From a bacterium (GTDB taxonomy: Bacteria > UBA8248), in contig CBDBZY010000064.1 in the NCBI GenBank assembly GCA_965213685.1, forward strand, positions 768,001 to 832,000: 64,000 bases of DNA, given 5' to 3'. The first letter of the stretch is position 1, and every line of letters starts with the position of its first letter. Below are positions 284 through 43,193 of this stretch, piece by piece. Both the position numbers and the translations under genes were made by a program. Under the pieces are notes generated by a model. That model saw only the letters and a program-made list of their open reading frames with translations, made no database searches and was not told the DNA's origin.

Positions 284-2892
284 ATGGCAGACAGCAGAGG
301 ATCACCTGAGCACAGTGATGGACATAAGATGCTGAAGAAACCACCAGTAATGCCAAAACCTAAACATCAAGTGCAGATTGAAAACCACACCACAACAACA
401 CCCAGTTTCCCATTCAATGCCACCCAGACACCACTTGTTCCCCCCAAGAGCCCAAAAGGGAGCGAAGAGGGCAGCAATGGCCACAGAAGGCCCATGCCTC
501 CGCCTCGCTCTTCTTCCATACCAATAACAGAGGAAGACACCAACCTCACGAGTGGGAGCACTACAAATGAGCCATTACCAACTGCAGCCCATGTCTATCC
601 CTCCCCTTCCTACAGTGTAGAATCGATGAACCTGTTCTCGCCCACGGCTGTATCTCCAGCCAGAATGACATGCATCTCCCAGGCTCTATCTCTTCAAGAG
701 TTGGTTGAAAAGTATTCGCAGTCCTTCCCAATGCAAATCAAAGTTCTCCATGGCTTTAGTGGCCAAACCTCACAGCTCACTCTCTCCAGTGGAGATTACT
801 ACAATATTCACTTCATGAAACGCCAGGAAGTTGTGTCCCTGAGGGATACATTGGGGTTCACCTACACAATCCCCCTCAATTCCGCCCTTCAGTTTGGTTT
901 GGTCCAGAGTGAAGATGCCCACCTTCAAAAAGAGTATGATAGCCGGGTGTACGAAAAGGTCTCTGACCTGCTAGCTCTATCATCTCTACCCAAAGTAGTC
1001 TGTGCAACAAAAGACGTAAAAGCCAGCGATGACAAAAACACAATCAGAGCAGATGAAATTCTTGTAATCAAGCGTGCTTTCAAACCCAAATTACTTGGCA
1101 AGAGATCACTTGAAGTGCTCAGTCTCAAGACGCAGACAACAAAAGTCTTATCTCCTGATTGTGAAGGCTGCTTCTCACTCAGCCCTCAACGCAACAAGAT
1201 TTATTTGCTGGAATTTGTGAAATGCATACCAAATCCATTTCCTTGTCAAGCTCTAATTTTCATGAGTAATGACATCTCGACAACACTGCAGTGTATTTCA
1301 CCCTCCCTTCTCTCCGGTGTTGTGACCCTCACAGGACACAAGTGTGAGACGTCTCTCATTGCCTCCTCAGTCACATACACAGAAACTGAGGATCCAGGTC
1401 AGGTCGGTATTCAAGAGGCAGCAGTGGATATACCGGTTGATGAGCGATTGAGGGATGTAGAGGTGGCCATTGTTGAAACAGTAGATTTACGGCAACAGGA
1501 GAGGTTGTTTGATAAGACTCGAGACCTCTTTGAAAACTTCGATATCACAAGGGTGGCCAGTTGCTATGATGGCCCAAACGACAATGTCTACATTACACAG
1601 AGCCTTCTTTATGCCAGTACTGAGAGAGGTTCAGAGAAAGTAGGGGTTCAAGTGGATAAGCCTCTAGCTGCCTATGCTAAAACCACATCACCTGCGAGCC
1701 CAGATGGTACACAGAGAATGAAAAGTGAAGATGAAGTGTTGTATGAGAGTGTTCCCTCAATGGAAGGAGTTCCTACTACCACTCTAGACCTGCAGCCACA
1801 CTATGCAGCCGTTGGGCAATATGAGGAGCCTAGCTCAAGAATGTTGTTTGATGCACAGAAAGAAAGTTACCAACCAACATCATTTCCAAGCCAGACTCCT
1901 TATGGAGATGGCAATCCATGGGCTCATTATGACCAACTTCCATGTTTTTCTCGGCAAGTACCAACAGCTGGAATGCGACTCAGGCGCAGCCAATCGCAAG
2001 AAGTGATACCATCTACTGACCTACCAGACTATGAAGACATGCGGCCCCTCACTCCCTCACTGAGACGATTCCTCTCCTCCAGTGTACTTCCAGGAATTAG
2101 TTATCACAGGGAAACTGAAACAAAACTGGACAAGGTGGTGGCTACATCAAATGCTCTTGAATCTTCCATCAGAGATCTCTCAAAGAGAATGACCCGTATG
2201 GAGCATCAAGTAAGTGAAGTGATACGAATGAGCGCAATGATGAAGACCCTGTCAGAGGGAATGGCTGCTCTGAATTCTCAGATCAATCAGCTTCGTGGGG
2301 AACAAGGAGGGAGGGGGAAGGAAGTGATGAATGCTCGCTCCAATGATGAATCAAAACAAAAGAAGGATGATGAAAGTCGCCAGTATTTGGAGCAATTAGA
2401 TATGACCCAGGTATGCATTAAGTGGGTCGATATACCTGTTGTGCATTATGTAGTCCATTTTTGCTACCTTGGACCATCAAGCAATCAACAGGGCATATCT
2501 CATTTCAACCATAATTTGTACTTAGCTGCTAAACGAATTATGCAGTAGAGGTAGTAACTGTTATGCCAAACATCCATAGCAATGAATGACAGATATGAGT
2601 GCATCGCTGTCTACTACAATTATGACTTGAGTGACTACTTTGCTGTGTATAGCAATTTAATCTGCTACCTTCTTTTCCTTAGATGGAAAAACTCTTGGAT
2701 GCCATGGGTCTTATGCAGTACAAAGAGATCTTCCATCGTGAACACATAACTGGAAAGCTTTTGCTGCAGTGCAGTGAAGAGATGCTGGAGAAGGAACTTG
2801 GCATGGAAAAGAAACTGCATCGCATGAGGCTAATGGAAGTTATTAGTGGCCAGCAGTCTGCTAAAGACCTTTTGACTGGAATTTTTAATTAA
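284..2892 (+). CDS. CABIT-SAM adaptor paralog 1 (GAREM/THEMIS-like); exons 284-2410 and 2683-2892; ~778 aa
   Basis: Pro-rich N-terminus (KKPPVMPKPK, PLVPPKSPK, RPMPPPR). CABIT-like core (LSLQELV..FPMQIKVLHG..YNIHF..YTIPLNS..LPKVVC..DEILVI..DCEGCFS), then a Tyr-rich tail and a heptad segment. Donor CAG|GTATGC at 2410/2411 and acceptor TTCCTTAG at 2681-2682 give a phase-0 join to a SAM exon (LLDAMGLMQYKEIFHREHITGKLLL..LEKELGM..LHRMRL). Confidence 0.85.
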
Positions 2893-3105
2893 TTCTGTTA
2901 TTTGCTACCCTTACATACATAACCTAGAATGACTTAAATTAGACTTATACATGTAGTTGTGCTGCAATGTTTGTGCAATATGATGTACCCAAACAAGTTC
3001 TAATAATATTTTGCATAAATTGGTGATTGGTTCATAGAAGGGAAACGAGATAGCTGCTGCAATAGAAAAATTGCTTTGTAAGGCATAGCGCACTCTTGCT
3101 CTCCC

Positions 3106-3152
3106 TCCCCTCCCCTCCCCTCCCTCTCTCTCTCTCTCTCTCTCTCTCTCTC
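3106..3152. repeat. CCCT/(CT)n microsatellite
   Basis: Visible pyrimidine repeat tract. Confidence 0.9.
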
Positions 3153-40688: not shown

Positions 40689-41153
40689 ATGTAAACATCT
40701 TAGCATCAGTTAGCACTGGGATGTCATAATGGATGTCATAACGTTTTGTATGTTTGTAGTGTTTCACACATTTTTCTGCACTGTAACCTTTGAACAGAAT
40801 GTGTTTTGGCAATCATAGATTCATATGTTTGTCACATCCAGTTGAGAATGAATGCATGTGCAGAATGCAAAGAATGTGCATGTGCAGCATGAGGTGTTAT
40901 ACCAATATAATAATTCACTTAGTGAACATCCTACACATTGCACTCATGCACAGGGTTGGGTGTATGCGCATGTGTGAAGAGTTATGGTATTTGCTAGCCT
41001 GTAATAGGAGCACCACTCCTCCTCCCTATATGTTATTACATGCCTGCATCAGACCTATTGACTGCTTGGCATTACTAGGGAACATTATATGCTATGTGTA
41101 CAAAAACAACCATTAAGGCAAACATGAAGTAATACTAGAACAACACAATTTGT

Positions 41154-43193
41154 CTAAGCTTGTCCATATGGGTCTAGCCCCTTCATAATGGATTGAGCAG
41201 AGTGAGAGCCATCAATAATCTTCATCAACCTCATGCGATGAATCTTTTTGGACACTTTCAGTTCATCTCTTAGTTCTAGATCGGAACACTGAATCAGGAT
41301 GTCTCCAGATATTTGTTCCTGGAGGAACATATCCTTGTACTGTCGCAGTCCCATGCTCTCTAGTAGGTTCTGCACCTGTTGCATGGATTTATCAATACAC
41401 ATTAATAATACACTAATTGTACAAATTTCTGCTCTAGACATGTGTACCAAGAAATTGCTACAGCCAACACACCCCAAGCCATCAAAGGGCGATGGAATTG
41501 CCCAAATGCTTATTCGTTATGTACTCCCTACATCTTAGTAACTCCCACTACCTCTGTATGATTCTACTGAGTAAACTTGATACCATATATAGTAACACAC
41601 CTGGAGTACATTCATGGACATTACAAATCTCCGGTTTCCTTCTTCTACAGACTGTGGATTTACGTAGGGTGTAGGTGCTGCTTCAGCTCTTGAGTCATCT
41701 TGTATTGTATTGACGGGCTCCTCATGTGGCACCGCATATTCTTCTTCTTTGGTTTCTTCTTGCAACTGTAGTTTTTCATACACATACTGTTCATCAGGAA
41801 ACTCCTCAGGTGCGCTTGGTATGGGGCTGTTGTATTTGTATGCAGGATCTGAAGCAATCGGCTGAACAGAAGATACAGGAACCATTTTGACATAGGGGTC
41901 ATAGTTAGCTTTGGAACCAGGGCGAACCACTTGGAAGAGGAGGTTTTGTAATTCAAATACTTCATCATTGCTTGCATCTTTCAGCATTATGAACTTTGAA
42001 GGGTCAAACTTGCTTTTGAGTAGCTGCGTACTCTGGTGAAGTTGCTGTGCTTCTTCCAATCCTAGTGCTGGGATCATACGCACTGCCAAGGAAGATAAGG
42101 CATCATCCATTGGTATATTCAGGAGTGGCTGGCTAGCATTGCTGTCAGGGCCAACATTGGATGCAATCAGGGAAGATAAAACAGCACTTCCGCAAATATT
42201 CACAATGGCACCAGATTGCATTTCAGATCTCTTACTGGTAATTTGATGGTTGGGATATATCTTTGCCATGCAAGGAAAAGCATTTGGTAAGTGCTGAACA
42301 ATGTCAGAGAGGTACAATTTTGTTTTCTCAGCATCGGCAGTAAAATGGCCCTTGAAGTCTTCCCCCAGCTCAATGTCTTCATATTGAGGCAGGCTGAAGC
42401 ACCTCAGCGTGGATCTTCCTACCCCCTTCACAATGCAAATCTGCCCCTTGGCCACATACACCTTACGTTTCTTTACCACGTCCCTTTGGGCACAAATTAC
42501 CCTTGGGACTTTGGACAGAGCAAGGATGTCACCTACTTTTGCATATGTCTGACTAGACATCTGTGGCATGGCTTCTGATTCTGCGTCAAACAAAATGCCA
42601 AACTTCACTGCAGAGTTCAGTGGCACCAAATATTCCACTCCCATGGCATCACGCACTGTGATCACATCAGTGTGCTTCACAAAATGAATGTTAAGCCTCT
42701 GCTCTGCCATAAGTGAAAATTTAGAGGTTTGGCTGCAGTAACCATTGATCAGCTCCACCTGGACTGGAAATATGCTGGGAGGCTTCTGTGCAAGTTCCAA
42801 AAGGGTGAGATCTTGCTGGGTCATGCTTAGAGGCCGATGGACACAGCTTTCTGCACGCTTTCGTTGCTTTCGAGAGTAATCATGAAAGGCCGTGACTTGG
42901 GTAGAGTAGGAGCGGTTGCGGGGAGGAGGTAGTGGGGGCTGATGTTGATAGTGCTGATTTGTACTCAGTGCATGTGTCCTTGATTGTCTTGGCATGGAAT
43001 GTGAGTTGCTCACCCAGTTACGTCGTTCGAGTATTGGAGAGTTAGGTAGTGAATGTGGCAGACCTTGCATGTCAGATCGCCATAAGGGCCGCTCTGGCTG
43101 TGGAGTAAAAGGCCGTTGGTACACTTCTCTCTCACATGACTCGAGGCTGCTACTGATGGTAACACTGCAGCCAGGTGATTGTGGTGTGGCCAT
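41154..43193 (-). CDS. CABIT-SAM adaptor paralog 6; exons 43193-41601 and 41375-41154; ~604 aa
   Basis: PPLPPPR motif and a CABIT core with DFKGHFT in place of xCxGxF. Donor CAG|GTGTGT at 41601/41600, acceptor AACAG at 41377-41376. SAM exon VQNLLESMGLRQYKDMFLQEQISG. Confidence 0.85.

Follow-up and report, generated by a model that had tools for sequence, protein, structure and literature searches.

To our knowledge, what is known of proteins with a CABIT domain (THEMIS, GAREM) comes almost entirely from T-cell and growth-factor signalling in vertebrates, and the working of the domain is still a matter of debate. One account (PMC8086153) describes GAREM as a CABIT domain, a proline-rich region that binds Grb2, an ITIM-like tyrosine (pY453) and a SAM domain. 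In a second account (PMC13381594), THEMIS is credited with a proline-rich Grb2-binding sequence, and THEMIS and GAREM are both said to build membrane-proximal platforms with Grb2 and SHP phosphatases. Here we describe CABIT genes in a 64,000-nucleotide stretch (hereafter the window) that comprises positions 768001-832000 of contig CBDBZY010000064.1, abbreviated C64, from assembly GCA_965213685.1. The region is probably part of a tandem array of demosponge cytoplasmic scaffolds of the CABIT superfamily – scaffolds of GAREM-like build that stem from old duplications and belong to a family very large in sponges.

Six intact two-exon genes (g1 to g6) and one decayed copy lie within window positions 284-43193. 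A stop-to-stop scan of this range for open reading frames (ORFs) returned six frames of 552-1019 amino acids (aa); within them exon 1 runs for 531-988 residues without interruption, followed by an exon 2 of 67-77 residues. The order of parts is the same in all six proteins – a proline-rich N-terminus, one CABIT domain of ~320 aa, a tyrosine-rich linker and a C-terminal SAM domain – and the core common to them (~300-360 aa) is 25-37% identical between pairs. A search of the assembly with g6 recovered the other five genes at expectation values (E) of 1.2e-56 to 4.9e-30, far beyond chance. ORFs, alignment and splice sites thus bear out an earlier reading of the DNA made from its letters alone (the sequence-only reading), which had proposed six genes and a pseudogene with a common core, a SAM exon, an intron at the same place and strong divergence. 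Its boundaries also stand, 284 being the ATG of g1 and 43193 that of g6, and the combination of tandem arrangement and one pseudogene is the pattern expected of the birth-and-death evolution that it invoked. One point needs correcting: the cluster extends beyond the window, with more copies elsewhere on C64. The features are as follows.

269-2548, + strand: g1 stop-to-stop frame (ORF scan)
284..2410, + strand: g1 exon 1; ATG 284, CABIT core 680-1663, coiled-coil-like stretch ahead of the donor
2411..2682, + strand: g1 intron, phase 0, GT..AG; prediction only
2683..2892, + strand: g1 exon 2, SAM and TAA stop; SAM_1 E 9.1e-12
3673-6054, + strand: g2 stop-to-stop frame (ORF scan)
3679..5994, + strand: g2 exon 1; CABIT core 3985-4947, Pfam CABIT E 5.6e-09, 36.2 bits
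5995..6128, + strand: g2 intron, phase 0, GT..AG; prediction only
6129..6332, + strand: g2 exon 2, SAM and TGA stop; SAM_1 E 1e-09
7566-10187, - strand: g3 stop-to-stop frame (ORF scan)
7620..10148, - strand: g3 exon 1; CABIT core 8295-9374, Pfam CABIT E 7.1e-12, 45.7 bits
7174..7619, - strand: g3 intron, phase 0, GT..AG; prediction only
6955..7173, - strand: g3 exon 2, SAM and TAA stop; SAM_1 E 2.6e-13
30150..32409, + strand: pseudogene (seventh copy); CABIT pieces, SAM remnant, stops and frameshifts
about 30843..31319, no strand assigned: high-copy interspersed repeat inside the CABIT region of the pseudogene, placed by contig depth and loose ends
33539-36598, + strand: g4 stop-to-stop frame (ORF scan)
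33602..36565, + strand: g4 exon 1; CABIT core 35165-36118, matched by g6 at E 8.7e-41
36566..36664, + strand: g4 intron, 99 nt, GT..AG; a run X7 contig joins 36565 to 36665
36665..36889, + strand: g4 exon 2, SAM and TAA stop; SAM_1 E 2e-10
38435-40471, + strand: g5 stop-to-stop frame (ORF scan)
38555..40360, + strand: g5 exon 1; ATG 38555 or 38492, CABIT core 38951-39850, Pfam CABIT E 4e-07, 30.2 bits
40361..40454, + strand: g5 intron, 94 nt, GT..AG; a run X7 contig joins 40360 to 40455
40455..40688, + strand: g5 exon 2, SAM and TGA stop; SAM_1 E 2.6e-11
41535-43193, - strand: g6 stop-to-stop frame (ORF scan)
41601..43193, - strand: g6 exon 1; ATG 43193, CABIT core 41859-42815, YVNP near the end, Pfam CABIT E 1.9e-07, 31.3 bits
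41376..41600, - strand: g6 intron, 225 nt, GT..AG; run X7 contig
41154..41375, - strand: g6 exon 2, SAM and TAG stop; SAM_1 E 2.2e-12
43194..43277, - strand: g6 5'UTR intron, 84 nt, directly upstream of the ATG; run X7 joint

Evidence that the common core is a CABIT domain, as the sequence-only reading had it, came firstly from the Pfam profile (PF12736, gathering cut-off 24 bits), which four of the six genes – g2, g3, g5 and g6 – match above cut-off; g1 and g4 are homologous to g6 (E 1.8e-46 and 8.7e-41, respectively). The nearest clusters in the ESM Atlas are CABIT families (score 0.92), with 24 of the 30 listed matches sharing that set; those shown comprise THEMIS2 and a CABIT cluster from a mollusc, and no CABIT-plus-SAM set is among the 30 matches listed. 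An AF2 model of the g6 core (pLDDT 86.3, pTM 0.83) has SH3, FeoA and IdeR as its solved look-alikes. The domain would consist of a beta core into which an SH3-like head is inserted, with two helices at its C-terminal end. In the 'CxGxF' column a cysteine is present in 186 of 206 aligned family rows. Consistent with a domain found in animals only, all five named relatives are from sponges and the contig is eukaryotic. Sequence searches of the PDB gave no match at E<=1 for g3 alone, and a 39-row family profile met coiled-coil noise only (E 0.18 or more, including the Lpp and GCN4 coiled coils).

SAM_1 was found in all six second exons, on the same strand downstream of each gene (E 1e-09 to 2.6e-13), which upholds the SAM assignment of the sequence-only reading; the SAM exons of the other genes are 42-52% identical to that of g6. 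The SAM-bearing frames span 2683-2889 (+), 6129-6329 (+), 6958-7173 (-), 36665-36886 (+), 40455-40685 (+) and 41157-41375 (-), for g1 to g6 in order. Each gene has one phase-0 GT..AG intron of 94-446 nt, placed at an identical codon boundary within the first SAM helix: the donor follows '...LD(V/M)xQ' and the acceptor precedes 'VxxLLxAMxLxQY', while the conserved end of exon 1, '...N(R/K)xF(L/V)xx(L/M)D(V/M)xQ', is already SAM-like. In five of five further C64 paralogs with a nearby SAM exon the acceptor is at the same position. Complex prediction with two copies of the SAM exon alignment gave a score of 0.00, the mark being 0.42, and counts neither way. SAM-like exons are also present at four places on C64 that have no CABIT locus nearby (577120-577323, 617165-617368, 1233138-1233272 and 1241297-1241383); the first two score equally and may represent a duplicated gene.

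Contigs of four sequencing runs (X1, X7, X8 and X10) were placed on positions 30000-43500. Run X1, which holds 0.96 of the sampled words and whose contigs read through the introns, is probably the source DNA. Run X7 comes from a different study and its kind is not on record, none of the listed runs being recorded as RNA; we infer that it is RNA-derived because its contigs are spliced. They skip exactly the introns of g4, g5 and g6, at the predicted junctions to the base, together with an intron in the 5′ untranslated region (5'UTR) of g6. The g4 joint (36565-36665) is carried by one contig of depth 2.3 with 37 letters on the shorter side, the g5 joint (40360-40455) by a 719-nt contig with 252 letters on the shorter side, and the g6 joint (41372-41598) by a 1891-nt contig; the last has an equally good cut three places to the right, at 41375/41601, and reads CT..AC on the plus strand. 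The 5'UTR joint (43193-43278) likewise ends in CT..AC and has 28 letters on the shorter side. On this reading of run X7, g4, g5 and g6 are transcribed and spliced as predicted, and the expression that the sequence-only reading had proposed to look for is thereby found for three genes. Runs X8 and X10 contributed short low-depth pieces only, and run X7 is without cover over most of g4 and over the pseudogene outside its repeat; neither fact has a bearing on expression.

A further issue is what such proteins would bind. PxxPxR motifs serve as class II ligands for SH3 domains, the SH2 domain of Grb2 has pYxN as its consensus, and (I/V/L/S)xYxx(I/V/L) is an ITIM or SHP site. N-terminal to the core, where proline makes up 10-20% of residues, all six genes carry between one and four PxxPx[RK] motifs (for example PLPPPR, PLVPPR and PKVPPR). 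Of the 147 database relatives whose N-terminal region exceeds 40 aa, 104 have the same motif, against a mean of 44.3 and a maximum of 59 in 100 shuffles. Of 143 relatives, 95 have Yxx[VILM] in the 80 aa that follow the core (shuffled mean 48.9, maximum 64, again 100 shuffles), and the six-gene alignment lines up one such tyrosine in every gene, about 25-30 residues past the core. YxN is found in g2 (YMNP) and g6 (YVNP). A coiled-coil-like stretch precedes the SAM domain in g1 and g2, with weak coiled-coil-type Pfam matches over g1 residues 611-702. Outside the CABIT core no 19-residue stretch in the six genes has transmembrane-like hydropathy, the maxima (1.04-1.63) all falling within the core. 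The disordered N-terminal region of g4 contains an in-frame 102-nt (34-residue) tandem repeat, at 33849-34337, in 4-4.7 copies with an 85-92% match.

These features suggest a soluble scaffold with a disordered proline-rich N-terminus, one CABIT domain, an acidic tyrosine-bearing linker and a SAM domain. By analogy with GAREM and THEMIS, a Grb2-type SH3-SH2 adaptor would bind the proline motifs and so recruit the scaffold to activated receptors linked to tyrosine kinases; the linker tyrosines, once phosphorylated, would dock SH2 proteins such as SHP-type phosphatases; and the SAM domain – with the coiled coil where there is one – would connect scaffolds with one another or with other SAM-containing proteins. 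We infer all of these binding partners, and the pathway, from the analogy. The paralogs keep CABIT and SAM but vary in the number and context of their linear motifs and differ mainly in their disordered parts, so that the set of partners wired would vary somewhat from one to the next. The array itself would have arisen by old tandem duplications with occasional loss, as in the one copy that is now a repeat-disrupted pseudogene.

Among the described systems that come nearest are GAREM1/GAREM2 (FAM59A/B), the Grb2-associated regulators of Erk/MAPK in vertebrates. Shared with these are the single CABIT domain near the N-terminus, the SH3-ligand proline motifs, the ITIM-like or YxN tyrosines, the C-terminal SAM domain and the lack of a membrane segment; a long CABIT domain with C-terminal helices is a further likeness, and the succession of one CABIT domain and then a C-terminal SAM domain is found in all six window genes. 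They differ from GAREM in that the sponge proline motifs precede CABIT, in the coiled coil of g1 and g2, and in number: 17 sponge loci on 1.6 Mb against two genes in mammals. THEMIS and THEMIS2 share the CABIT domain, for which an SH3-like head is predicted here too, and the look-alikes of our model (SH3, FeoA, IdeR) fall into the same classes as those reported for THEMIS CABIT2. THEMIS, however, has two tandem CABIT domains and no SAM domain, whereas the sponge proteins combine a single CABIT domain (191 of 198 relatives; two in four) with a SAM domain (6/6 window genes); one CABIT plus SAM means that they are not THEMIS-type. With SARM1 and the liprins, which include the best solved relatives of the SAM exon profile, the SAM domain is all that is held in common, the former having ARM and TIR domains and the latter coiled coils and a set of three SAM domains.

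The window holds but a fraction of the family. A tblastn search of the assembly with the six proteins found 17 CABIT loci (16 merged rows), all on C64, seven of them in the window and ten outside it; the other 70 contigs gave none. Upstream copies lie at C64:765k, 2.5 kb from the window start, and at C64:750-752k, about 16 kb away, with eight more elsewhere on the contig; five of the outside copies have a SAM exon at short range. At C64:750745-752288 (minus strand) the CABIT match falls in two frames (750814-751032 and 751344-751982), and this locus may hold an extra intron inside CABIT. A profile search of 1.84 billion cluster representatives (clusters at 50% identity) returned 1298 at E<=1e-3, a number that falls to 939 at E<=1e-10 and to 597 at E<=1e-30; that these 597-1298 clusters are mostly sponge is a statement based on five named proteins and two run labels. 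Among 198 fetched relatives, 191 have one long match to the core, four have two and three have none. A profile search for longer proteins returned none, a 'near' profile search, limited by its word filter, gave 22, and a single-protein scan of metagenome contigs found no related loci. One match to a contig of an Anaerovoracaceae metagenome-assembled genome (L016 10001-10093, 31 residues, 48% identical) was taken as chance. Three pairs of relatives each have a matching longest-contig figure (337073, 376070 and 187252), as if co-located, which hints at clustering elsewhere.

The named relatives are LOC100632476, LOC109586808 and LOC109584380 of Amphimedon queenslandica, GBAR_LOCUS25911 of Geodia barretti and LOC135338305 of Halichondria panicea. 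They match the family at E 8.7e-32 to 1.7e-14 with a single sequence and at 9.4e-47 and 2.3e-32 with a profile, and a SAM domain is precomputed on three of the five. The Geodia protein (P0021, GBAR_LOCUS25911) is 65% identical (157/241) to the C64:751k paralog and sister to it; the other four are 19-29% identical. The nearest database matches of the window genes are much closer: 86-96% over the core for g2, g3 and g4, 86% over the whole protein and 90% over the core for g6, and 100% for g1 and g5.

Trees were built with FastTree (206 rows) and with IQ-TREE in quick mode (52 rows, omitting the two shortest partial copies). In both, each window gene stands beside its own database relatives and never beside another window gene. 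One clade of 32 rows (SH-aLRT 94) contains the six window genes and the 765k, 1408k and 751k copies, with (g3,(g5,g6)) at support 96 and ((g1,g2),765k) at support 97 inside it; the Amphimedon and Halichondria proteins fall outside, near 872k and 360k or on a branch of their own. As the Geodia orthologue is 65% identical to its counterpart and the paralogs are 25-37% identical to each other, the duplications predate the divergence of this sponge from Geodia barretti. These comparisons argue for a family that is old within sponges and large. The lineage-specific expansion that the sequence-only reading had inferred is, on these results, neither recent nor private to the organism, given that each window paralog has nearer relatives in the database and that 751k has its 65%-identical orthologue in Geodia.

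The assembly from which the window comes is filed as that of a prokaryote (7.97 Mb, 71 contigs, completeness 94.19%, contamination 3.68%). C64 departs from such a label: at 1.64 Mb it has 44% GC and 16% cover by ORFs of >=150 aa, against ~65% GC and 90-95% of length in such ORFs for most other contigs. Repetitive DNA in the window includes (CA)n microsatellites, a tandem array of ~1.3 kb and an interspersed repeat present in very many copies. The five named relatives are all sponge proteins (Halichondria panicea one, Geodia barretti one, Amphimedon queenslandica three), and two of the 12 listed sequencing runs are labelled sponge metagenome. Low GC, low ORF cover, repeats and sponge relatives together indicate that C64 is sponge host DNA binned with a bacterial symbiont, and the sequence-only reading, which had suspected an early-branching animal, was right in this respect. 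Six further contigs of >100 kb (C18, C41, C16, C51, C7 and C2) have 45-53% GC and 19-36% ORF cover; with C64, the seven low-GC contigs (44-53% GC, 16-36% cover) sum to about 4.6 of the 7.97 Mb, and the rest of the contigs of >100 kb have ~65% GC with 90-95% cover. The assembly is a mixed bin, with sponge identity established for C64 only. Host DNA that passes marker-gene checks unflagged appears to make up more than half of this "bacterial" assembly. The practical point is that animal genes can be mistaken for bacterial ones in such mixed bins.

A number of points weigh against the argument for GAREM-like sponge scaffolds. Neither g1 nor g4 has a Pfam CABIT match at E<=0.1. No solved THEMIS chain surfaced in PDB sequence or fold searches, and for that reason the fold argument is indirect. 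The column upstream of 'CxGxF', tentatively equated with the name-giving CABIT cysteine of the SH3-like head (whose counterparts in THEMIS would be Cys153/Cys413), holds valine in 138 and cysteine in 57 of the 206 family rows; in the window it is cysteine in g3, g5, g6 and the pseudogene and valine in g1, g2 and g4. Just 11 of the 198 database relatives include a SAM domain in the predicted protein, a scarcity that we tentatively attribute to intron-blind gene calls on metagenome contigs. The proline-rich region of GAREM lies after CABIT, not before it. Among solved chains the SAM profile matches SARM1 at 44.2 bits (E 1.6e-10) and liprin-beta-1 at 43 bits (liprins E 3.9e-10); chain 2dkz, 'hypothetical protein LOC64762', which we take to be human GAREM1, is in row 26 of the 30 listed (24.6 bits, E 2.2e-4). 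A search for a gene with an SH2 domain (PF00017) found none in the assembly, which covers a small part of the sponge genome only, and the control genomes were also blank. The splicing of g1, g2 and g3 is a prediction only, and the nature of run X7 is unrecorded. On trees made up of this family's rows, orthology to GAREM is conjectural.

Two alternatives would remove the sponge scaffolds altogether. That the genes encode eukaryote-like proteins of a bacterial sponge symbiont would accord with the filing of the assembly as a prokaryote at 94.19% completeness and 3.68% contamination, and sponge symbionts do carry eukaryote-like domains; it is already contradicted by the spliceosomal GT..AG introns removed in the run X7 contigs, by the base composition and long-ORF cover of C64 set against those of the bacterial contigs, by the (CA)n microsatellites and high-copy interspersed repeats of the region and by named relatives that all derive from sponge nuclear genome records, and we give it virtually no credence. 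The array could instead be decaying or non-functional DNA, made of dead duplicates or the cargo of transposable elements, as one might suppose from the pseudogene with its inserted repeat and from the great divergence of the paralogs. Six uninterrupted frames of 531-988 codons with intact splice sites, spliced contigs over three genes, database relatives at 86-100% across g1 to g6 and linear motifs kept above shuffled expectation make this highly improbable.

The two other alternatives concern ancestry. The window genes might be genuine co-orthologues of GAREM, with vertebrate GAREM1/2 and the expanded sponge set both descending from a single CABIT-SAM gene ancestral in animals. The shared order of parts, with one CABIT domain, tyrosine motifs and a C-terminal SAM domain, is what such descent would leave, as are a ~320-aa core with C-terminal helices – predicted for the longer CABIT domain of GAREM – and a single core in 191 of 198 relatives. 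Yet in the SAM profile ranking 2dkz comes behind SARM1, liprins, tankyrase, DGK-delta and CNK2, and the nearest Atlas clusters are the mollusc CABIT cluster and THEMIS2, with no CABIT-plus-SAM set among the 30 listed; we regard co-orthology as a real possibility that falls somewhat short of an even chance. The sequence-only reading had likened the core to GAREM: the GAREM-like order of parts stands, and membership in GAREM proper is unsupported, the SAM profile being far nearer to SARM1 and the liprins than to 2dkz. Or the architecture may be convergent, a sponge CABIT gene having gained its SAM exon, one like those of SARM1 or the liprins, independently of GAREM. A SAM domain on its own exon behind a phase-0 intron lends itself to exon shuffling, SARM1 and the liprins are the solved proteins nearest to it in sequence, and the proline motifs are N-terminal to CABIT. 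The intron, however, lies inside SAM helix 1 rather than at the domain boundary, behind an exon 1 end that is already SAM-like, and short SAM domains saturate so fast that a ranking by E value is weak evidence; convergence is thus rather unlikely.

The claim of a novel system had to be given up: Amphimedon and Geodia relatives are already named automatically, two of the five (one Amphimedon, one Geodia) being labelled 'CABIT domain-containing protein' in UniRef. A literature search for CABIT or GAREM together with sponge or Porifera found no linking paper, Johnson et al. 2009 and Tashiro et al. 2009 being outside its coverage, and none was found on the five named sponge relatives. The noteworthy feature is the size of the family and its tandem organisation in sponges, which are apparently unreported.

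The single-CABIT set of sponges, which is large, diverse and expressed, offers a deep comparative alignment for locating the functional surfaces of the domain; it is also a testable case of early animal expansion of phosphotyrosine adaptor networks, and sponge biology gains from it a list of candidate signalling components. That they act in immunity or recognition is speculation. At its boldest, one might suppose that sponges turned the CABIT-SAM adaptor, represented by two to four genes in mammals, into one of the largest intracellular signalling families, with hundreds of lineages in birth-and-death tandem arrays acting as combinatorial phosphotyrosine/SH3 scaffolds downstream of equally expanded surface receptors, for instance in self/non-self or symbiont recognition – a long shot at present.

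The seventh copy is a true pseudogene. Its CABIT pieces lie at 30370-30573 (frame 1, with two in-frame stops) and 30603-30848 (frame 3), with more fragments at 31329-31527; a SAM remnant at 32018-32206 carries stops and shifts and is followed by a 153-nt tandem duplication (32121-32409). The interspersed repeat that interrupts it has, in run X1, a summed contig depth of 71,116 in the bin 30902-31352 against about 60-100 alongside, and many loose contig ends of runs X1, X8 and X10 gather at both of its borders, 30843 and 31319.

Of the other ORFs in the window, ten were compared with Pfam and none had a match above cut-off. Upstream of the pseudogene, positions 24283-29334 hold a tandem array of about four units at 0.9-1.3 kb spacing, 88-100% alike and with (CA)n tracts in each. 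This array explains the strong GC and AT skew there; the GC skew at 24-30 kb was accordingly rejected as a mark of a gene, its source being the (CA)n tracts within the ~1.3-kb tandem array. Beyond g6, positions 44725-47119 and 50303-52663 form an inverted duplication that is 96.8% identical over 2.4 kb. The protein it encodes is without a Pfam match; a hydrophobic stretch lies at its N-terminal end, one part is rich in cysteine, and there are roughly 8-10 segments of hydrophobic character. The open frame is 641 aa long in one copy and shortened to 499 aa in the other.

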